Source: Cirrosporium novae-zelandiae
Lineage: Eukaryota
Assembly (NCBI GenBank): GCA_026023565.1
Contig: JAPETS010000006.1
Location: 248,001 to 312,000 of the forward strand
DNA: 64,000 nucleotides
Direction of reading: 5' to 3'
How positions within the stretch are numbered: position 1 is the stretch's first letter; each line of letters begins with the position of its first letter. Positions 7,333 through 43,236 of the stretch are shown here, piece after piece. The notes below the pieces were generated by a model. That model saw only the letters and a program-made list of their open reading frames with translations, did not search any database and was not told where the DNA came from. A program made the translations under genes and the position numbers.

Positions 7333-10051
7333 ATTGTCTTATCTAATGTATTTCATACAGTACATGAAACATTGGAGTTTGTGGAAATTCCACTGGAGCC
7401 CTGGAGCTTTATATGCACCAACGATACACAGGTAATACTTTCGAACGGAAACGATTGAGTTGCGGAGAATGTTACAGTGCATGAATCAGTCACACCCGAC
7501 AATACTAACATACACCATGCCGACCACGAGGTGAAGCTTGCTTGCTTTGATATATTAAAAGAGCAAAGAACGGAAATAAATGCGGAGGATTGCTAGTTCC
7601 CCATCCGTGCCCAAACAGGTGGATGTGGGGAGCAAATAACAGTCATTGGATATGTAGTCGGATGATATTAGGCTAATTATCTGAGTAATGCAAATAATGC
7701 ATTTTGAAAGGTGGTGCAAGTGATAACAAACAGTAGAAAGGGAATAGTGAGGGGTATTTGGGATTGATGAGGGGCACTAGGGGTTTGTGTATTCATTGAT
7801 GTGGGATGCATTGATCTGCACAAGGTACTTCAACCAAAGAAGCTCTTTTGTAGGTGTGGTTCGAAAGAAACCCCTCCTCGAAAGTACTGTGGAAATAATG
7901 TTAGGATTTGGTGGGTTGCTCTTCCTGTAGACTTCAAGCGGTGAAAGAATCATTTAAGACCCCACATTGTCCATCATCGAATATTCCCGCATCCTAACTA
8001 CAGGAGTAGAATATATGGAATTTCCAAGGAAAAAGATGGGATGGTTATTATATATATATATTATTCAGAGCATGGCGGTGTTTGAAAGCATAATTTGTAC
8101 CTGAGAAGAATTCTTGGACGAACAAGAAGGCATCTCGGGTGTGGCTGAAGGTTTCCTAGATTGGATTATTTTTGTGTAAGTTTGCCGGTCCCTAATACGA
8201 AGCTAATGGATCATTCAACCTGTTGGTTCTGGAATCCATGTTGAGTTATTTATTTTATCTTGTGAGTAAATCAAGTCCAGTTGTGTTGAGATTCTGCAAC
8301 CATCGAAATCGAGACATGTTACAACTCTGCTAGGTTAATATTTGATGAAATGGCATCATGATTCATTCCATTCATGACACATGTTTGAATGTGAATCTCG
8401 CCGCTCCGTCTGTTGTGATTATTTCTCCGTGTAGGCCTCAGGTTTTCCATCAAGTCGGTTGTAAAAGATCTTCGCCGGCTTCCGTAAGTTTGACTAGCTC
8501 ATGTTGCGGTGAAGTTAAGCAACAACGACGTGTATCAGAGTTTCCGAAATCTTAAACAAGTTTCCTATCTGTTAACTTCATAGATAGCAAGGTTTGGAAA
8601 AAGAAGAAGATGATGATGACGAAGGAGGATAAGGGGGAAACAGTGATAAAAATTTCCCATCTATTGTGTGAGAAGCATTGGTTGAATAGATACTTTTTGA
8701 AAGCCATGTGTGTGTTGGGAGTATTATGTTTTGTTTTGTTTTGTTGTGTGTGCAGATAATAAAAAAGACTCTAACAGCAGTTATGGTTGCAGTGAAATTC
8801 TTGGATTAAATCGAGGACAACGGCAAGCGCCACAAACGTAAAGTGTTTATGCGCCCGGGTCCGATACATCTGCCTTCCAAAACTCAGGAGACGTGGCTCA
8901 AGTATCAACCGAATACATAGGATACGAATATCAAACCTGGTTAATTCTCCACTATTTTGCAGTCTAACTTACTCATAATCGTCTGCAAAAAAATGGCTCA
9001 TTGTAATTTCATCCATGACCTGGAGAAATTCTAGAGTGTGCAATAGGAGTAAAACAAGGACCAGGAAGACTTGTTTGTTACAGAATAGAATACAGAAAAT
9101 CCTCCGTCTGAGCTGTCAATGTCTGGTGGAAAGTATCTTATAGCTTATAGGGAGATGAGGTATTTTCTGGGTTGTCGTAAAATTCCCTCTCTAAATTTCA
9201 AAATTGAAAATCAAAAAAAGAAAGAAAGAAGAAAAAAACCAAAATTCCAAATTCCAAATTCCCGTGAACTTTCACAGGGTTTACATGTCCAAAATAAGAA
9301 AGCAATGAGCGACTTCTAGCGACTCCAGCGACTGCAGAGAGCCACAAATTAAAGTGCTGGATTAGATCCGCGCCTATGAGACTTTGTGGTTGGCCATTGG
9401 TCTCGGTTACTTTTGGTTGACCGCCCACGCCGCCCAAGGGGCTGTAAGGCCGCTGTAGGCCAATGCAAAGACCAGGGTTGTTTTCCAGGGCAGGCCAGGG
9501 GTGTTGGGAAGGCTCAGGAACATGAGTTTTGGTACCACTGTACATGTACTACATATGTACTACTAAGCTGTAAGACCTGTAAAGGTTGTAATGACCTGTA
9601 AGCTGGTGGCGGAAGGAAGCCCGTCAACTTTTGACAGTTTTCGATCAAAGCTTCAAAAGCTGATCTCCTGATTCGGAATTTCAAATGTAATTCCATGATA
9701 TCAACAGCAAATCCTAGTGGGTGACTTTTAGCCAGACCCTCTTGCCATTGTCCGATATTCTCCTAGCTTTCATCTGAATACACATCCAAAGTCACTCAGA
9801 GCCACCCGTGTACACCCGTCAAGCTCTGACTGTACCCAGCAATCATGGATCAAGCTATTAGCTCTTCTAGCATGACTCCAACCCGCATCGCACTCTATTT
9901 ATATTTGCTCCTCGCGCCGTCTTGTAGAAAAAAAATTATTGTTAAAAAAGAAATCTGCATAGGAATAATACGCCTTGCTTCTAATATATCCCTTTTTTTT
10001 TCTCTTGTTGAATTCGTCTTTCTTGGTCATTGACCTAATTGACTTTCCAAT

Positions 10052-11626
10052 ATGGCTTCCCTCTTGCCTGTTGAGATAATACAGAACATCTTTTCGCATT
10101 TAACCCCCGAGAACTTCGACTCTGCAAGACTCGTCTGCCAATCATGGCGATTCGCCTCCTTCTCCTCACATGTGCTTCGGAAGCAGCTTGAGCAAATTCC
10201 AGTAAAAATTCCAAAGGTCGACGAGTCCGTTCCACAGCCCACTGTCTATCAACTACACGATGCCTTCAGACAAGCTGCCTTTGCGTGTTTGTTCGGAATG
10301 CGTGACAAGATTACAAGAACATCAGAAACAATCAAGATGCCAAATACAACTGGAACCAACGTAATATGGGCGAAATCAGGTGATGGAAAAACTTTGGCTT
10401 CTTTCCATAGTGGTCGTCTCGAGGTTTTTGATCTGACTCATCAAACTCCAGAGCTGGTATCATCGCGGTCACTTTACCCTCTTTGGACGAGTGTCAGCCG
10501 TGCTATCACAGATGGCATGACATCTTGGCTCTCAATGGCTCCTCCATATGCAACTTATCGGTTGGCCTTATCAAGCAATGGAGAAATGTTAGCGGTTGCT
10601 CTTGCCCGAACCATTCAATTCTACGACTTGCGACCGGGAGAAGAAGACACCGATCCAATCGAGTTGGTTCTTAATGTACCTGTTCAGAAGCCTGTGGCTG
10701 CTGCTTGGACCGATGTCAAAGGCGTCATTGAATCAATCGATTTTACTGATTCTGATCGCTTACTGAGAATTAGAGTAGGAAGAGAAGGAGTGGTAAAAGA
10801 GTCTGCTAGAATTAGATATTATGGGATTCCAGCAGCACGTCCCAAATTTGAGATGGACCGTGAGCCAGAGGAGCTAGAGCCCCCAAGAGAATTATTCGAG
10901 TACTGGAAACGAGCAGCCAACTATGTTTTCACCGATTCCGTCGCTTTGTCTCAGACCTTGATTTCGGGAGAAAGCCTCTACCTACGTGGCATGCAGCTAC
11001 TTCCATGGTCAGCACCCACCACAGTAGGGTACCAAGGGCGAATGTTCGTTGCCCTCCTCCAATGTCAAGTTCAGAGCAACTACTGTGTGGGAGTCATCAC
11101 CCGCCTAGGAGAAGCCATGATACTCTCCAAACTCCCCAACAGATTCGAGCGACTCACAGGAGATTGGTACAAAAATTCACCCTCAAACCCGCTCCCATGG
11201 GTCGACCCCGCAAACCTGATCGCTACAGCCGCCGAGAAGTTGACCATCTCAATTCCACGATGGGATCCCTGCAACATGCCTCAAGTGACCACTAGCAAGC
11301 CAATCCTCGCCACCGCTGATGATGGTGAACTCATGGCTGTCTTCGAACCAGGTGCGGCTAAACAATATAGCTTCTGCAACGGCGGAGCTATCTATCTCTA
11401 TCGCCTCTCAGGAGCCATGGCACATCCCTACCACAGCGAGAAGCAGACCGCTCAACCTGAAGGGGCCCCCAGCAGAGTGCAGCCATGGTCGTTCCTTCTC
11501 GACACCATCTCGGAAGAGATTCTGAGTCTGAAAATGCAAAGGTCTTCGGAACCTGGAGCATCGAAGACATACATGCTAGAAGCCGAAACCTCGAAGCGTC
11601 GCATCCGTTGGCAACTCGGCGTTTGA
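10052..11626 (+). CDS. F-box protein with WD40-like C-terminal region
   Basis: 524-aa ORF. N-terminal LLPVEIIQNIFSHL..SARLVCQSWR is an F-box, followed by beta-propeller-like repeats (LALSSNGEMLAVA). Confidence 0.85.
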   Translation: MASLLPVEIIQNIFSHLTPENFDSARLVCQSWRFASFSSHVLRKQLEQIPVKIPKVDESVPQPTVYQLHDAFRQAAFACLFGMRDKITRTSETIKMPNTTGTNVIWAKSGDGKTLASFHSGRLEVFDLTHQTPELVSSRSLYPLWTSVSRAITDGMTSWLSMAPPYATYRLALSSNGEMLAVALARTIQFYDLRPGEEDTDPIELVLNVPVQKPVAAAWTDVKGVIESIDFTDSDRLLRIRVGREGVVKESARIRYYGIPAARPKFEMDREPEELEPPRELFEYWKRAANYVFTDSVALSQTLISGESLYLRGMQLLPWSAPTTVGYQGRMFVALLQCQVQSNYCVGVITRLGEAMILSKLPNRFERLTGDWYKNSPSNPLPWVDPANLIATAAEKLTISIPRWDPCNMPQVTTSKPILATADDGELMAVFEPGAAKQYSFCNGGAIYLYRLSGAMAHPYHSEKQTAQPEGAPSRVQPWSFLLDTISEEILSLKMQRSSEPGASKTYMLEAETSKRRIRWQLGV

Positions 11627-20021: not shown

Positions 20022-21328
20022 GAGGGAAAGGATGATTATTTTTATTATTATTATTGTTGCTACAAATGGCTTAGTAGAGCGTCAATAGCTACGGCTATCA
20101 TCATCACCTGGGCTGGTGTCTGGGTGGAAAAGGTGTTGTGAAGATAAAGTCTCGGGGGTTGTTCGATCAGGGAATTCATGGTTTCGGGGACGGCGAGGGT
20201 AATGATAAAGGCAATCGACGCCATTTCATCATCATCGAATCTCAAAATTTCTTATCCTACTACTACTTTCGAAAGTATAAAGTATGATAATATGATAAGA
20301 GTCCCATCAATCTGGGTACCCCTGAAGGGATGTATATTCAGCGCTTAAATCGGGGGGTTGAATCAAGGTAATTAATTAATGATTAATTCCATGCAGAATA
20401 GAATAACTGCAGGGCAAGAAAAGTTGGACAAGGCTAATATCCACTTCCAAGGATGCCTGGGATGCCAAGAGATTTCTGACGGGGCTCCACCGTTGAAACC
20501 CGGACAATATATTTCAAACACAAGAAAGACGCTCTAAAAAATGCTCTAAAAAGAACCACAAAACAATTAATACCCGACGCTTGCATAAATATTGTGAAAG
20601 CAATAAATTGCCCTGAGAAATCTATGGCTAGATCGCCCCCTTCGCTTCGAGAAAAAAAAAACTCATAGAAAATATGAACAAGGACATATTAAACTAGCCA
20701 ACTAAACTATTAATTAATTAGCTACTCTAGCTAAATCAATCATGGCGAACCTACCTTAAACTACTCCGACTTAAACTACTGTAGTTACGATCAAACATGA
20801 AAGCCGTGCTGCCCCTCGGTTCCTCATTCAACCAACATCTTTTCTGTTTCGCCCTCTTCCATTTCCTTGAAACGAGTCTATTCCCATTTCCTCATGCTTC
20901 AGCTTATTAGACAACTCGCATTTGTGATACAAGCTTGTTTAGTTACCGTGCCGCTTCCTCGCCAGGCTACCTTATGTTATGTTGGTTGAGATCGACAGCT
21001 ATCGATCATGTCACTCCTAATGTTGTTATATAAATCCCCATCCCCCCTGCTTTTTCTTAGATTTTTTTTTTTTCCTTTTCCTTTTTTCTTCACGAGATCT
21101 CTTCTCTCTGCAAAAAAAACTTACTCTTCTCATTCTTTTTTCGTGGGCTAGGTTCCCCCCTCCTTTCATTCTTTCTAACATTCATTCTTCATCGGTGCTG
21201 CGCGCCTATACCAAAAGAAAACAAAAATCTCAACTCCCTCAAAATTCTTACCAAGACAGATTCCAAGTCCAACACGCTCTTCGAAGGAAACAAGTGTTTA
21301 ACTAACAAAATCTTACCCATCAGTCAAA

Positions 21329-22416
21329 ATGAAGACTGTACAAGCTTCCGCTCTTTACTCTCTCCTCTCTCTGGTCCCTACGGTTCTGGGTCATGGTTTT
21401 GTCACCTCTCCAACCCCTCGCCAGCCTGGTTCGGCCATGGAGTCTGCTTGTGGTGTACAAGTTTACGACAACCAGGCGGCAGACAGCTACGGAAATATCC
21501 AGGGCATGTTGCAGGTGGCGGCTTCGCAGTCGGACTATGATGCGGCTGCGTGTGACATATGGCTCTGCAAAGGCTACAAGTACGCAGATAACACGGATAA
21601 TGTCCAGAGTTACACCGCTGGCGAGTCTGTGGCAATCACTGTTGATATCCGTGCCCCACATACTGGTGTCGCAAATGTTTCGATCGTCAATACCGCCACT
21701 AACACTGTGATTGGTGATGCATTGAAGTCATGGTCAGTGTATGCTTCAACTGCTAGCTCGATCCCCGCAGATGAGGAGCAATTCAGCGTCACTATCCCGA
21801 GTGATTTGGGCGATACGTGCTCGACTGCAGGAGCTTGTGTGATTCAATGGTACTGGAATGCCGCATCCATCGATCAGACATATGAGTCTTGCATCGATTT
21901 CACGGTTAGTGGAAGCGGATCCAGCTCCAGCGGCTCTGGTGCCTCGTCTGCTGTTTCATCCGCCGCAGCGGCTACCAGCGTAGCTGCATCCAGTGACGTC
22001 GTTGCCTCTTCTGCTATTTCCTCTGTCTCGACTCAGGTCGCGGTGGTAAGTCTAACGAAATCCCCTCTATCATAACTATTTCCAAATCCTAACTTTCTTA
22101 CCTCTAGGCTGCGACCTCTGCCATTGCATACTCTAGTGCTGTTCCAACTTCCGCTGCCGTCGCAGCAAGCACCTTTACAACTTCAGCGGTTACATCATCG
22201 GTGGTTACATCCTCAGCGGCTGCCGCTAGCGCTACCTCCACCGACCTCACCAGCCTCGGCCTCAATGACACTATTCCCTCAGGGACCACTTTTGAGGACA
22301 TGCTCGTTGTCTTGGAGAAAGTAGTCAACAAGGTCTTGGCCAGCTCAAACGGCAGCACTTCTAGCAAGCTCCGCCGCCACGCTCGGGACATGTTGATTGC
22401 GGCCTCACGTGCTTAG
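21329..22416 (+). CDS. AA16-family lytic polysaccharide monooxygenase-like secreted protein with Ser/Ala-rich tail
   Basis: Signal peptide ends before His1 (HGFVTSPTPR), second His in APHTG, CVIQWYW..QTYESCIDF. One intron at ~22047-22108. The tail ends RRHARD. Confidence 0.85.
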
Positions 22417-23152: not shown

Positions 23153-24538
23153 TTAGTTGTGTTCAATCTCATTCTCACTCTGTAACCTTTTCGATCCAGT
23201 CTTATCGTCCCTATCCAGGAGACTTCCTATGCGTTTTCTGTACCTGCCACTCCCTAATTCTGGAAATGAAATTGGTCCGTTCCTTCTTGAACCTTCCGGA
23301 TCTTGACTAGTAGCAGTCTCCCCGCTTCTGTCAACCACACACCATTCATCCATCTCTTCCGGATCAGCCATATCGGAATTATTCGAGAGTACGTCATAAG
23401 ATGACTCTGTATCATAATCTGGTTCTTCAGAGGAGGAATTATTTGCCGCTCCATTTTCGTATATCCCGATGTCGACCATGTCCCGCCACCAGCTGGGGGA
23501 AGGTTCTTTCTTGCAAAATGGGCGAAATGCGAGAAGAAATTCAATATTATAGACAAAATTACCGGTAAGGGAGTTGAGGATGCTAATAATATCTGGAGGT
23601 GTGGTACCTAGGGAATCGTAATTGACAACCCCAAGATGTTGTATTCGACGAGGTCCACCGGCCTTCGCAGCATTTTCAAAAGGGTTTGGAGGGGGAACAT
23701 TGTATGGGATGCTTCGGAGCTGATCATATAATCTTGCTACGTCATCGCTATACCACGCTCTGTTGTTGTCGTTGCCAACAATGAATGACTGGAGACTTCC
23801 TTTCGTTGAGCTGTTGTGCCTGGCTTGTAAATGTCTTGAGTCGTATTGGCGCCTCATCTCTTGTCTGGTTGGTTTGCCATGTAGGGGAAGATCACACCAA
23901 AGACATATCCTCCGGCTGTCCATGTTTTCATCCGTAACAGCGTCACAACAACCTTCTCCCCAACAGCGACTTCCTCTACTATCTACATCTTCATTTTGCT
24001 TGGTCTTGCATTCGATGCAGAGCCAAATATCCTTGGCACTACATTCACAAGTATTCTTTTTAAAATAAAGGACTTTGTCTGCTTTAGAATCAAGTATGCG
24101 GCGTCCTCTGTGGGGGTTTCCTGCGCTCCAACATTCTTTGCATAGATGACGACATCTATTTGAGAAAGTATTTTCGCTCTTGCATTTGCTTTTCTGGAAG
24201 GACGCTCTGACTATGCAGGCATCACATACAGGAATTGAGCACAATTTACAGGCTCGAATGTTGTTCCCTTTCGTATGTCGTGGTTCACTGCAATCATTCA
24301 GGGATTTTGACTTGAGAAGTTTCCAGTAAGATGTTTCATGGCCGCCTAGGAAGAGTTCGGAGCGTCTCGATATTTGAACATCTGGTTTATTTGGAAGCTC
24401 AGCTACAAGGAACCCATGAAGTGCGAGGCGATATGAGGAAGAGGCACGAGACAGCCTGATTAGACTTCCCACGGGGAGGTTTTCGGCGAGAGATGAGGCA
24501 ATGGGATAAATGGACACGACATCCAAAAGAGTTGGCAT
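23153..24538 (-). CDS. Uncharacterised Cys-rich protein with F-box-like N-terminus and eIF4G-like eIF4E-binding segment
   Basis: Intronless ORF starting MPTLLDVVSIYPIASSLAENL..LIRLSRAS. Many CxxC pairs, then FVYNIEFLLAFRPFCKKEPS and an acidic tail. Confidence 0.8.
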   Translation of the reverse strand: MPTLLDVVSIYPIASSLAENLPVGSLIRLSRASSSYRLALHGFLVAELPNKPDVQISRRSELFLGGHETSYWKLLKSKSLNDCSEPRHTKGNNIRACKLCSIPVCDACIVRASFQKSKCKSENTFSNRCRHLCKECWSAGNPHRGRRILDSKADKVLYFKKNTCECSAKDIWLCIECKTKQNEDVDSRGSRCWGEGCCDAVTDENMDSRRICLWCDLPLHGKPTRQEMRRQYDSRHLQARHNSSTKGSLQSFIVGNDNNRAWYSDDVARLYDQLRSIPYNVPPPNPFENAAKAGGPRRIQHLGVVNYDSLGTTPPDIISILNSLTGNFVYNIEFLLAFRPFCKKEPSPSWWRDMVDIGIYENGAANNSSSEEPDYDTESSYDVLSNNSDMADPEEMDEWCVVDRSGETATSQDPEGSRRNGPISFPELGSGRYRKRIGSLLDRDDKTGSKRLQSENEIEHN

Positions 24539-25012: not shown

Positions 25013-25368
25013 ATGTCTTTACAACATTATGTGAATAGTATGTACACCCCACTTTCTTTCTTTAGGTCGTACTAATACGACTTTCTCAATTATCAGAGAA
25101 AGTCCTGGTTCTCACCGCAGACGGACGCACTCTGACCGGAACTCTCCTCTCTTGTGACCAGATGACCAATCTTGTCATGGGCGGAACAGTTGAACACATA
25201 ATCCGGCCTCCAGATGACCCCGAAGAAAGTTCCGAAGCGATTCACGGTCTATACTTAATTAGAGGAGATAATGTGGTCGTTTGTGGTCTTGTGGATGAAG
25301 AATTAGATGCCAAGATTGACTGGACGAAGGTGCGAGGTAGTGTGATTGGAGGGACCAAGCATATATGA
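25013..25368 (+). CDS. LSM8: U6 snRNP Sm-like protein LSm8
   Basis: MSLQHYVNK|KVLVLTADGRTLTGTLLSCDQMTNLV..GLYLIRGDNVVVCGLVDEELD. One intron. Confidence 0.93.
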
Positions 25369-39450: not shown

Positions 39451-41712
39451 TCATTCACTACCACCCTTTCTCCGCCGTCTAATCATCCTCTTCCTTGCAA
39501 TGATCCTATTCCTCTTAGCTATCTTCTCTTCCTCCTCGGTCTTACCCCCATGTTTCGTGTCATCGGATAAGGACTCGACCTGGTTATTGGTCCTCTCCAA
39601 CTGACCCAGATCTGACCCTCGTTTTCGCTTAGAGCTATCTCTAGCTTGTGTCCTTGTGCTACGGTTATCAGTAGATTTCCCTTTGCTGTCCAAATGATTT
39701 TCACCAGGATTTCTATTTCCTGGGACTTGGCCCTTTTCACGGGCCTTTGTTTCTTTCTCTTGCCTCCTTGCAATTACCTGCGCGTTCTCGATAGCAAACT
39801 CGACAACAAGCCGCTTTCTCTTACCGTTTGGATCTGTCTTCGATGCTTTCTCCTTTTCATGTGTTTGTGTAGTAGCAGCTACAGCATGACCATTCAACCA
39901 CCGTAAGCCCATCAGGGCCCAGCGATGAGAATAGTACTCAACAAAACCGTATCCCCTACTCCGCCCAACGTCACCATCTTCCTTAATCTTGGTCCCCTCT
40001 TTACTTTCGAAGACAATCTTAGCCTGTTTAACGATACCTTTCCCCCTCTGCTTCCTCAACCTATCCGCCTCTTTCATCTCTTCACTACCTCTCTCGGTTT
40101 CTTCTTTCGAAAGTGGCGCTCTAACACCCTTTTTGACATCGGTTGCAAAGCCCACAACCGCTTCACGTGCAAGAGCTTTCAATTCTTTTGAAGTGGTGTT
40201 TCGAGGAATGTTTCGGATCGATAAACGGGTTAAACTGAGATGAAGTGATGGGTTATTGCGGACGAGTGTCTGTCTTTGCTTTGCACTAGCTTCCCTCATC
40301 TGGATTTCTGACGGAGAAAGATTTTTATACAGTTCAGAGTCGGCTGGGATAGTACCTTCAGATAGCAAATATAGCCGTCGCTTATCCTTGTCCCTTGCAA
40401 AGCGGCGATCATCTCCTTCTTGTGTAAGCCTAGTGGCCTCGGTCTTATTGACAGCGTGTGAAATATGTAAGACACGGCCCTCCATAGTGTAACGACCAGA
40501 GAGATCAGCAAGTTCATTTTCCAGAACCGAATGTTTCGCAGCGGAATTGGAGTCAGGATGTGAGGTTTGTAGTTCGGAACGTCTTGGAGCTTGACGGAGG
40601 CAGGAGATGGCGTTTTCTTCGTTATAGAAACAGACAAAACCAGTTCCTTTGGACCGCTCGGTCTCGTGGTCCATAACCACTCTAGCATAACGAACAGGAC
40701 CAAATTTTTTGAAATGCTCCCAGAGGCTCTGATCCGTACTTGTGAAAGGAAGGTTGCGAATGAATAACGTTGAAGAGTTTTGTTCTTCAGGAGGAGAAGC
40801 CTCATCGCCCATCTCCTCATCTTCAGAGGATTCATTTTCCGTGTCGAACCCATCACTTACGCGTTCACTCTCATTATCGCTGTTTAGAGCTTCAAGAGCT
40901 TCATCACCATCCTCACCGAAATCAGATCCTTCCACATCAGAACCTTTAGTAGACTCTTCCCTTTTCTCTTCCTCATCTTCTTGCGCCTTTTCCCAAACAC
41001 CCTTTTCAACGGCCCAATCCACAGCCAAAACCCTCCCATCTACTTCTTTTCCATTGACGCCCTCTAAAGCACTCTCGGCGTTTTCCCTGCCTCTGATGAT
41101 GACGAAACCAAAACCAGCTAGAATCCCGGGCCCTTTCTTTGGTAGCACTGTTTGGATGATTTTGCCATAGCTTCTAAAGAGCTGAGCAAGCTGTTCAGGT
41201 TCCTTAATAGACCATGGTAGATTTCGTATAATAAGCTTCGTCGATGTTTGGGTCTCCTTTTGGATGCTATGTTTTGGAATTTTCTTTACAACCGCTGTAG
41301 GTATTCCGCCATCAGGGTCCTTCTTACCGCCTTCTCGCTGTCGATGTTCCGCTATCTCAACCTTGATATTTCGACCCTGGAAATCAGTACCGTTAAGCCC
41401 TTCTAGAGCTTTTTGAGCATCTTCCGCGTCTGCGAAGGTGACAAACCCGTAGCCCTTACACTGGTTTGTTTTGCGATCAATAACAGCAACAGCATGTTTA
41501 ATCGGGTAGTTTTGAGAGAAGTGCGCAATCAATGATTCGGTGGTTGCAATTGCAGGAAGAGAGCGAACAAACAACTGCCGGCGGTGATCAGGTTTTTCAT
41601 CTTCTTTGAGAACAGCAGTCTTTTTGGAGACGACCTCTTCTTTGTCTGCAGGAGGAGCTGCAGTGTAGGCGCCATTGTCTGACAAGCGTCTTCTTTTCTG
41701 GTCTGGAGCCAT
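39451..41712 (-). CDS. NOP4: Nucleolar multi-RRM protein Nop4/RBM28
   Basis: 753 aa with four RRMs (KGYGFVTF, GFGFV, KGTGFVCF, RGYGFVEY), an acidic linker, and DKRRLYLLSEG / RLVVEFAIEN. Confidence 0.95.
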   Translation of the reverse strand: MAPDQKRRRLSDNGAYTAAPPADKEEVVSKKTAVLKEDEKPDHRRQLFVRSLPAIATTESLIAHFSQNYPIKHAVAVIDRKTNQCKGYGFVTFADAEDAQKALEGLNGTDFQGRNIKVEIAEHRQREGGKKDPDGGIPTAVVKKIPKHSIQKETQTSTKLIIRNLPWSIKEPEQLAQLFRSYGKIIQTVLPKKGPGILAGFGFVIIRGRENAESALEGVNGKEVDGRVLAVDWAVEKGVWEKAQEDEEEKREESTKGSDVEGSDFGEDGDEALEALNSDNESERVSDGFDTENESSEDEEMGDEASPPEEQNSSTLFIRNLPFTSTDQSLWEHFKKFGPVRYARVVMDHETERSKGTGFVCFYNEENAISCLRQAPRRSELQTSHPDSNSAAKHSVLENELADLSGRYTMEGRVLHISHAVNKTEATRLTQEGDDRRFARDKDKRRLYLLSEGTIPADSELYKNLSPSEIQMREASAKQRQTLVRNNPSLHLSLTRLSIRNIPRNTTSKELKALAREAVVGFATDVKKGVRAPLSKEETERGSEEMKEADRLRKQRGKGIVKQAKIVFESKEGTKIKEDGDVGRSRGYGFVEYYSHRWALMGLRWLNGHAVAATTQTHEKEKASKTDPNGKRKRLVVEFAIENAQVIARRQEKETKAREKGQVPGNRNPGENHLDSKGKSTDNRSTRTQARDSSKRKRGSDLGQLERTNNQVESLSDDTKHGGKTEEEEKIAKRNRIIARKRMIRRRRKGGSE

Positions 41713-41973
41713 AATTAGATAATTGGAGATGGCTATCTGTTTTGGTGGAATTTATTTGGCGGGAACTTGAAGAAATTCTGAGCTTGAAGGTTTTTTTTTT
41801 CTGTTGGACCTGAAATCAATGTCGGGTAAAGTTGCCTATCACCCACAAACTCAAGCGGCACACAAACCGATTCCAACAACTTCAATCAACTCTGCCCTCT
41901 GCCTCTGAAACCAGCTGGTTCACCACTCTTAATCATACCATATTGCCTTAAACATTCTTGTCGGACGATCAAG

Positions 41974-43236
41974 ATGGCAGAGTAAGAAATGCGACCTTTT
42001 TTTGATTCCTAAAGCTTACAGCTGATTCCATTCTAGGAAAGATGGTCCCCTCAATGCCGTACAGGTGGAATCATTGGTAACCTTCATCTCGATCGCAAAG
42101 ATAACGATCAATGCTAAATCAATTATAGGTAGTGATGAAAATAATCAAACATTGTTCCCAGATGTTCCCTACCATTGCTACCGGGTCCCTTGTTGGTATG
42201 GATGTTGAAGGTGTTTTACAAGTTACCAATACTTTCCCATTTCCAACTGTTGAAATTCCCAATGACCAACATTTCGGTGAAAATGCCGCTGCCAACCTGG
42301 CTGCGGCGGCCCCGCGCGCAAAGATCAATACCCAGTACCAAGCAGAAATGATACGGAATTTACGAGAAGTTAACGTAGATGCAAACAACGTGGGGTGGTA
42401 TACTAGTGCGAACATGGGAAATTTCGTCACCCTAAATATGATTGAAAATCAGTTCTTCTACCAGAAAGATATGAATGAGCGGACTATTGCCTTAGTGTAC
42501 GATATCAGTCGAAGTTCACAGGGGAGTCTCAGTCTGAGGGCTTTCAGGCTCTCTCCTCAGTTCATGACCGCCTATAAAGAAGGCAAATTTAATACTGAAA
42601 GGTCTGTGCCTTATCATAATGTTATTTGGGAACAGGTAATTGACAGGACTATACAGTCTTCAAAAGAGCGGACTTAAGTTTCAAGAGATTCTCCAAGAAC
42701 TTCCTCTCGAAATACACAATTCTCACCTTCTTACTTCTTTTCTCCATCAACTTCCTACACCACCCCCTTCATCGGCTCTTCCGTTCCCCGAATCCCTTGA
42801 ACTTATCACCTCCTCACCGTTTACCCCACCTGCGCCTCTCTACCCGAACTTCGACTCCCTTGATCTAAGCGTCGATCCTTTCCTCGAAAAGACATGTGAC
42901 CTCCTGCTCGACTCTATAGAGACTCACCACACTGAACTCAACAACCATCAATACTACCAGCGACAACTTGCTAGGGAGCAAGCTAAGATCACACAATGGC
43001 AACAGAAGCGCAAAGCCGAGAATCTTACCCGAGGAACTGCAAAGCAACCGTTGTTACCCGAAGATGAGTGGACACGGCTTTTCAAGCTTCCACAAGAGCC
43101 AAGCCGGCTGGAGACCATGCTGAACTCGAGACAAGTTGAGCAATACGCTCGACAGGTTGACGGATTTACAGCGACAGTGACGGGTAAAATGTTTGCCGTC
43201 AAGGGAAATTTACTGCCTGGAGAGCGGGATGAATAA
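41974..43236 (+). CDS. EIF3H: Translation initiation factor 3 subunit H
   Basis: MPN domain [24 protein letters not shown], plus [21 protein letters not shown]. Three introns. Confidence 0.95.

Follow-up and report, generated by a model that had tools for sequence, protein, structure and literature searches.

Availability of eIF4E is a main control point of cap-dependent translation, and regulators of eIF4E in fungi are poorly known outside Saccharomycotina. Ascomycete eIF4G carries an eIF4E-binding region that is described by the Pfam family eIF_4G1 (PF12152) and by structures from Chaetomium thermophilum (6FBZ and 6FC0) and yeast (1RF8). The eIF4E-binding proteins (4E-BPs) and other eIF4E-interacting proteins (p20/Caf20 and Eap1 of yeast; 4E-BP1-3, Cup, 4E-T and Mextli of metazoans) are unrelated proteins that present a canonical motif and a non-canonical element; to our knowledge, none of them is an F-box protein. 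F-box receptors of the Skp1/Cul1/F-box (SCF) ubiquitin ligases (Cdc4, Skp2, beta-TrCP and the FBXL and FBXO proteins) combine an N-terminal three-helix fold with WD40, leucine-rich or Kelch repeats, and an F-box joined to a zinc-binding region is known from Emi1/FBXO5. There are reportedly also routes for ubiquitination of eIF4E, e.g., through CHIP/cIAP1, and an F-box mRNA-binding protein has reportedly been described in trypanosomes. Here, we describe a gene on the minus strand of Cirrosporium novae-zelandiae contig JAPETS010000006.1, at 23153..24538 of the 64,000-nucleotide stretch (positions 248,001 to 312,000 of the contig) that was analysed and is called the window below. The architecture of its product, P0001, appears to join two of these known kinds in a new way, an eIF4E-interacting motif and an F-box receptor.

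The best explanation of the data is that P0001 represents an uncharacterised Pezizomycotina family in which a divergent F-box is followed by a B-box-like domain with multiple zinc sites, then by a helical spacer and finally by an eIF4G-like region of ca. 60 residues (hereafter, the block). Tentatively, from sequence comparisons and structure models, we read P0001 as an SCF-type adaptor that would dock on eIF4E by eIF4G mimicry. In sequence, the block shares with Ascomycete eIF4G an aromatic residue two positions before the motif tyrosine, the Y-x3-F-L-L-x-F canonical helix, a K/E-P-S/T-P linker, a downstream aromatic residue with a hydrophobic helix, and a proline 15 residues upstream of the tyrosine, all of it ungapped over 45 residues, and it may derive from the eIF4E-binding region of eIF4G. 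Unlike eIF4G, P0001 has no MIF4G/HEAT, poly(A)-binding-protein-binding or RNA-binding regions in a Pfam scan, its scores are below the Pfam cut-off, the “bracelet” helix alpha1 and loop L1 have no recognisable counterpart, and a conserved cysteine replaces F1012. A preliminary description of this DNA, made from the sequence alone, had stated that there is no MIF4G/HEAT region, and indeed no Pfam domain, MIF4G/HEAT or other, was found in P0001 at E ≤ 10. Since it lacks MIF4G and stays below the Pfam threshold, P0001 does not qualify as an eIF4G, nor formally as a member of PF12152; it is an F-box-like/zinc-finger protein and not an eIF4F scaffold.

By analogy, P0001 would group functionally with the 4E-BPs and other eIF4E-interacting proteins, as an unrelated protein with a canonical motif and a putative non-canonical element, although it has no sequence relation to them beyond the motif. 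With SCF receptors, it shares an N-terminal three-helix fold, which superposes at about 2 Å on 16 solved F-boxes, and a C-terminal region that could bind substrate; its sequence, however, is too divergent for the Pfam F-box models, and it has a zinc-rich domain and a linear eIF4G-like motif in place of repeats. Regulation of eIF4E abundance by ubiquitination, as reported for CHIP/cIAP1, would be a further likeness, but those are U-box/RING ligases with neither an eIF4G-mimicking docking motif nor an F-box. In the literature searched, we found no F-box protein with an eIF4E-binding motif, no description of the P0001 family, as a 4E-BP or otherwise, and no paper in which “Clr5 domain”, a name given to many relatives of P0001, occurs together with “eIF4E”; a search for the Clr5 domain itself gave mentions in genome surveys only.

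The gene is intronless and consists of a single open reading frame (ORF) that runs from ATG to stop (the stop codon is included in the coordinates) and encodes 461 amino acids. A protein of identical 461-aa sequence is already predicted in NCBI nr, and the start codon is backed by alignment of the N-terminus with homologues. The possibility that P0001 is an eIF4G fragment or a pseudogene was considered and rejected, the ORF being complete, conserved and endowed with domains of its own. The peptide PRRIQHLGVV...SPSWW quoted in the preliminary description is found at residues 296-351 (about 23486-23653), and our translation of it is identical; the heptapeptide YNIEFLL is located, as had been claimed, at 23531-23551 and corresponds to residues 330-336.

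The block (residues 298-358; 23465..23647, minus strand) begins with a family-specific upstream part (H301-L302...Y307...P315...S323...G326). It is followed by YNIEFLL (23531..23551, minus strand), a predicted canonical Y-x4-L-hydrophobic eIF4E-binding motif, with F328 before it and F338-R339 after it, and then, at residues 337-358 (23465..23530, minus strand), by a linker, C342-KKEPSP, and a predicted helix 348-358 (W350, M354 and I357), the putative non-canonical helix. The canonical helix thus has eIF4G-type flanks, i.e., an aromatic residue at -2 and F at +4 and +8. Taken alone, the 7-mer is weak evidence, since 4715 out of 20,000 shuffles of the P0001 sequence contain a Y-x4-L-hydrophobic motif; the more specific Y-x3-FLL is found in 46 out of 20,000. 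What stands above chance is not the bare 7-mer but the conservation of the block and its profile matches to eIF4G peptides. The frequency of the motif among shuffles is one point in favor of an alternative explanation, in which the block is a family-specific module that serves another partner or folds onto the protein's own zinc domain, while its likeness to eIF4G reflects a convergent amphipathic helix rich in aromatic residues and leucines and has no role in eIF4E binding.

A strict C-terminal block pattern is satisfied by 37 of the 152 proteins collected for the family. None of these 37 relatives deviates at L302, Y307, S323, Y330 or F334, and conservation is 90% or more at P315 and G326. 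L335 is retained in 33 and L336 in 31 of the 37, so that the tyrosine and the leucine pair, whose conservation in orthologs the preliminary description had proposed as a check, are indeed conserved. The position of F328 is occupied by F, W or L in all 37, and the F338 column is hydrophobic in 35. Within the subfamily of P0001, motif position 9 is R in 17 of 19 members, the linker proline is present in 13 and the downstream tryptophan in 16. P346, S347, P348, W350, M354 and I357 are present in P0001 and its lichen-fungus subfamily and are not conserved in the Clr5-type relatives. A Ser/Thr-Pro site, T313-P314, is located 15-17 residues upstream of the motif tyrosine, beside the near-invariant P315 (P0001 residues 312-315, about 23594-23605), and the same column holds S/T-P or P-S/T-P in most relatives. 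Metazoan 4E-BPs are regulated by proline-directed phosphosites upstream of the motif.

The single sequence of P0001 retrieved no Pfam match at E ≤ 10 and no PDB-sequence match. Profiles of the family were searched against 177,635 distinct PDB sequences. With a profile built from the block alone of 36 of the 37 block-bearing relatives (A3; P0071 was excluded for its long insertion), five matches were obtained at E ≤ 10: Chaetomium eIF4G (6fbz_B, E 8e-4), human eIF4G1 (5t46_B, 0.28), yeast eIF4G1 (1rf8_B, 0.86), a 4E-BP1 peptide (3hxg_C, 0.93) and, in fifth place, an unrelated protein (E 1.0). The best match was again 6fbz_B when the profile was restricted to the block of nine sequences of the P0001 subfamily (A5; E 4.2e-6, 29.4 bits) or made from 19 full-length subfamily sequences (A6; E 2e-5, 27.1 bits). 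In the latter case, 45 ungapped columns, reaching back to P315, were aligned to chain residues 33-77 and took in the canonical helix together with the KEPSP linker and the region of the non-canonical helix. That almost all that the profiles pick out of the entire PDB sequence set are peptides that bind eIF4E, and that the ungapped match extends beyond the helix to the PSP of the linker and the downstream aromatic residue, argues against mere convergence. A search of the longer proteins in a set of 5.8 billion with the block profile gave 19 matches at E ≤ 10, all from the family, and is uninformative in this respect, because eIF4Gs scoring ca. 29 bits would exceed E 10 there.

The upstream segment H-L-x-x-V-N-Y, the most conserved of the family, was aligned to eIF4G by no search; the alignment to 6fbz_B starts at chain residue 33 (S982), at about helix alpha2, and no recognisable match extends to helix alpha1 and loop L1 of the “bracelet”. 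The extended fungal eIF4G pattern that the preliminary description had recognised in P0001 therefore holds only in part: it stands from about P315 onward, over the 45 ungapped columns, while its far-upstream R-x-I-x-x-L-x-x-V-x-Y is conserved in the family and unaligned to eIF4G save in two relatives, which reach PF12152 positions 22-69. This upstream part (RHLDTVNY...P), the most conserved one and with no demonstrated eIF4G counterpart, is a further point for a family-specific module.

According to the structural part of PMC6061780, the crystallised Chaetomium eIF4G fragment comprises Q954-D1030 and is preceded by the four residues of a GPHM tag, so that 949 has to be added to a chain position to obtain the eIF4G residue number, and chain Y51 is Y1000. 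On this numbering, P0001 P315 aligns with P985, F328 with F998, Y330 with Y1000, F334 with F1004, L335 with L1005, L336 with L1006 and F338 with F1008. Further downstream, C342 falls on F1012 (of the linker F1012-TEKPSP), P346-S347-P348 on P1016-S1017-P1018, W350 on F1020, M354 on V1024 and I357 on L1027. As described in the same part of PMC6061780, F998, Y1000, F1004, L1005 and L1006 contact eIF4E in the crystal structure, F1020, V1024, L1027 and I1028 of the non-canonical helix occupy eIF4E's lateral hydrophobic pocket, and the roles of the aligned residues include lining the “bracelet” and building the linker. Every position of the canonical helix for which that text gives an eIF4E contact has a conserved equivalent in the P0001 family (31-37 of 37 relatives), which is a further argument against convergence. 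The extended canonical consensus given there, Y-x-(R/K)-x2-L-hydrophobic-x2-(R/K), is satisfied by many Clr5-type relatives, with R/K at positions 2 and 9.

The N-terminal region of P0001 (residues 1-81; 24296..24538, minus strand) is predicted to form a divergent F-box-like helical domain with helices 4-8, 13-20, 23-32, 34-41 and 70-78 and a low-confidence loop at about residues 45-57. The full-length AlphaFold2 (AF2) model has a mean pLDDT (predicted local distance difference test) of 73.4, residues 1-245 being mostly above 90; the N-domain modelled alone (residues 1-247, alignment of 130 sequences) has a pLDDT of 90.5 and a pTM (predicted template modelling score) of 0.81. The latter model was compared with 48,161 PDB representative chains by VIA-align. 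Z reached 2 or more for only 31 chains, and 16 of these are F-boxes from complexes with Skp1: Cdc4, cyclin F, Fbl10, FBXL17, FBXL5, FBH1, FBXO31, FBXO3, AnkB, beta-TrCP (two entries), FBXL2, Fbw7, COI1 and Skp2 (two entries). All sixteen, the top four rows among them, align with model residues 1-81 at a root-mean-square deviation (rmsd) of 1.9-3.0 Å over 38-49 residues, the best rows being Cdc4 1nex_B (Z 3.6, 2.2 Å, 49 aa) and cyclin F 9cb3_A (Z 3.3, 1.9 Å, 49 aa). Since Z is only 2.1-3.6, it is this enrichment, and not the score, that supports an F-box fold for the model, in agreement with the F-box-like N-terminus seen in the preliminary description. With the full-length model, the F-box signal in VIA-align was weaker and long-helix matches were dominant. 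Foldseek found nothing in the PDB at E ≤ 1e-3 with either model; the first-ranking chain for the full-length model, 6fc0_B, had an E of 4.9 and is not significant.

Among the 65 relatives that have the N-terminus, conservation is 90% or higher at P12 and at several hydrophobic positions in the helices of this domain. A protein-atlas feature search brought up an Ascomycota F-box cluster (score 0.88), which we treat as a lead only. An F-box Pfam match above threshold, which the preliminary description had proposed to look for, was obtained neither for P0001 nor for these relatives, and a scan of the 37 block-bearing relatives revealed no F-box Pfam families. A canonical F-box, unrelated to P0001, is encoded 12 kb away by a 527-aa ORF (10043-11623, plus strand); since it scores above threshold (PF12937, E 1.5e-8; PF00646, E 1e-6), the Pfam models do recognise ordinary F-boxes in this fungus.

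One can also imagine that the N-terminal helical and zinc part has another role, such as RNA or protein binding or regulation, with no connection to SCF. P0001 would then be a plain eIF4E-binding repressor, i.e., a lineage-specific 4E-BP that competes with eIF4G. The evidence from the block serves this explanation as well as it serves an adaptor, and the sub-threshold F-box Pfam models and a structural Z of at most 3.6 are in its favor. It leaves unaccounted for that Skp1-bound F-boxes make up 16 of the 31 structural matches and all of the top four, at ca. 2 Å over 40-49 residues, as well as the conservation of P12 and of the hydrophobic helix positions and, as a lead, the F-box cluster; we consider it quite unlikely.

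Several observations weigh against P0001 being an SCF-type adaptor that docks on eIF4E. On the side of the F-box, the Z values are low, which is expected for a 45-residue domain and is not decisive; P0001 has no Pfam F-box match at E ≤ 10, and matches in its relatives are sub-threshold (PF00646 in 8 of 65, best E 0.011; PF12937 in 1 of 65). On the side of the block, PF12152, whose curated gathering cut-off is 27 bits, matches nine of nine block segments (best E 2.4e-5) and 10 of the 37 full-length relatives and is the sole or top Pfam match in 14 of the 19 subfamily proteins, but every score, from 13.4 to 21.1 bits (the best being that of P0083), falls short of the cut-off. The 65-aa block of P0001, aligned to positions 44-70 of the 70 in the profile, reaches 13.5 bits (E 0.082), and full-length P0001 has no PF12152 match at E ≤ 10. 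The above-threshold eIF_4G1 match that had been suggested as a check was thus not obtained, and because scores of 13-21 bits stay below 27, the block shows resemblance to eIF_4G1 and not membership of that family. Furthermore, a conserved cysteine (28 of 37) occupies the column of eIF4G F1012 and might serve the structure or bind zinc, with no connection to eIF4E; in the Clr5-type majority of relatives, neither the linker nor the non-canonical part resembles eIF4G; and the last motif position is non-hydrophobic in a few members. In the AF2 model, the block forms helices 317-324, 332-336 and 348-358 with a pLDDT of 83-88 over residues 301-340, high enough in a monomer for the block to be packed in cis and not to be a free linear motif. 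Finally, of the 47 members whose sequence continues for 130 residues or more past the RICLWC motif, 12 lack the block (26 satisfy the strict pattern and 9 have variant forms; the last class and the block-less one were assigned by eye).

The sub-threshold PF12152 matches, the pLDDT of the block and the conserved cysteine are all points for a convergent module, as is the Clr5 domain of many relatives, which points away from translation; this domain was first named in a fission-yeast silencing factor. Set against the selectivity of the profiles, the ungapped extent of the match and the conserved contact positions, we regard convergence as rather unlikely. Prediction of a complex between the block (residues 292-362) and the protein's own N-domain (1-262) gave a score of 0.00 and a mark of 0.34, single sequences having been folded without alignments, and is evidence in neither direction. 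Returning to the adaptor, we lean slightly towards the block being an eIF4E binder, as judged from its sequence, and the models incline us, to much the same degree, to see a working F-box in the N-terminus; that both hold in the same protein is a possibility that we rate somewhat below either one.

The F-box-like domain is followed by a Cys/His-rich domain (residues 83-220; 23879..24292, minus strand), for which about four zinc sites are predicted and whose first module is B-box-like. Sixteen Cys/His positions are conserved (C83, H88, C97, C100, C105, C108, C133, C136, C164, C166, C174, C177, C192, C197, C212 and C215), and the “several CxxC pairs” of the preliminary description are supported in that multiple zinc modules are predicted. 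The subfamily profile matched the B-box of PML (8j25_A, E 0.0097), and sub-threshold matches to zf-B_box (PF00643) and FYVE_2 were seen in 7 and 6 of the 65 relatives, respectively; neither Foldseek nor VIA-align found a significant fold match in the PDB for this part. A long-helix spacer (residues 225-275; 23714..23866, minus strand; AF2 helices 225-253 and 263-275) leads from the zinc domain to the block, and the protein ends in an acidic, Ser-rich tail that is predicted to be disordered (residues 359-461; 23156..23464, minus strand; pLDDT 37-53) and has no Pfam match.

Relatives of P0001 were sought exhaustively with HMMER among 1.84 billion cluster representatives; 150 matched at E ≤ 1e-3, of which 122 reached E ≤ 1e-10 and 81 reached E ≤ 1e-30, whereas a word-indexed protein search yielded only two. 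Where the sources name them, they are called “hypothetical protein” or “Clr5 domain-containing protein”. Since they occur in the lichen-forming Lecanoromycetes Lasallia, Umbilicaria, Acarospora and Loxospora and also in Sarea and Cladophialophora, the family extends across several classes of Pezizomycotina. Most family matches span residues 1-245 of P0001. Of the 37 block-bearing relatives, 18 have a Clr5 domain (PF14420) downstream of the block, a domain that is not found in P0001 by a Pfam scan at E ≤ 10. Two short proteins, P0161 (136 aa) and P0162 (135 aa), start exactly at the block (M-L-I-D-Y...) and hold only the block and an acidic tail; either their gene models are cut short, on short contigs, or they are block proteins that stand alone.

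For the N-domain, a maximum-likelihood tree from a quick rather than a careful search was built from 43 rows and rooted at the midpoint; rows in which the core motif was missing, or which had fewer than 150 residues before it or fewer than 130 after it, were dropped. As can be seen from this tree, the family splits into two groups, each with 97% support, and block-bearing proteins (33 of the 43 rows) are present in both; eight of the ten block-less rows fall within one subclade. The presence of block-bearing rows on both sides of the midpoint root suggests that the block has been kept in the family over a long time. The tree is compatible with a block that was ancestral and was later lost in places, the root being only a midpoint and the order of events hence not established. 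The members of one block-less subclade, P0008, P0010, P0014, P0017, P0021, P0030, P0037 and P0074, which either lost the block or never possessed it, keep the F-box/zinc N-domain, have low-complexity tails and offer natural comparators without the block.

No member of its subfamily is more divergent than P0001 (terminal branch 0.84), which also scores lowest against PF12152. Where D and a polar residue are usual, P0001 has N331 and I332, and in the column of G358 the others show I. These features might indicate that the block is a captured eIF4G fragment, truly homologous, which in P0001 is now a decaying relic without function. Yet F328, Y330, F334, L335, L336, F338, R339, C342, P346, P348 and W350 are all intact in P0001 and the ORF has no interruption, and we hold such decay to be very improbable.

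Under the preferred reading of P0001 as an SCF-type adaptor, the block would dock on eIF4E in the bipartite manner of eIF4G, the canonical helix (Y330, L335 and L336) lying on eIF4E's dorsal surface and the KEPSP linker with helix 348-358 (W350, M354 and I357) on the lateral surface, and P0001 would so compete with eIF4G for eIF4E. The F-box would recruit Skp1/Cul1, and eIF4E, an eIF4E paralogue or proteins on eIF4E-bound messenger ribonucleoproteins (mRNPs) would thereby be delivered to an SCF ubiquitin ligase. Binding of eIF4E, binding of Skp1 and ubiquitination are what we infer from the block and the F-box-like fold. If correct, one protein would both compete with eIF4G and hand the cap-binding complex to a ubiquitin ligase, tying translation to degradation; an Ascomycete-specific binding mode of eIF4G would have been copied by another protein family, and a name and a testable function would be at hand for over 150 proteins now called “hypothetical” or “Clr5 domain-containing” in lichen-forming fungi, in black yeasts and in fungi related to them. 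A broader version, in which the whole family consists of Pezizomycotina SCF substrate receptors that have carried an eIF4G-like eIF4E-binding region since their origin, appears doubtful to us. Were it true, eIF4E, a paralogue or proteins of capped mRNPs would be ubiquitinated via an F-box protein that mimics eIF4G, which would connect the cap-binding complex directly to cullin-RING ligases in a way not described so far; the Clr5-bearing relatives would extend this connection to other outputs.

The window has a G+C content of ca. 44% and is a piece of a fungal chromosome with ordinary housekeeping genes, among them those for tubulin, eIF3h, ATP10, Med16, Sir2 and a carrier of mitochondria. The eIF3h gene (JAB and eIF3h_C domains in two ORFs, presumably split by an intron; 42129-43233, plus strand) and a gene for a multi-RRM protein of 766 aa (RRM_1, E 1.3e-57; 39454-41751, minus strand) are located 15-19 kb from the P0001 gene, and their closeness to it is probably a coincidence. 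An ORF at 21302-22072 (plus strand) matches LPMO_10 (PF03067, AA10-type lytic polysaccharide mono-oxygenase; E 1e-9), a family that is commoner in bacteria and viruses than in fungi. A short divergent ORF at 25162-25368 (plus strand), which begins ca. 620 bp upstream of the P0001 start and has a weak LSM-domain match (E 9.4e-4, under the cut-off), may share a promoter region with the P0001 gene.

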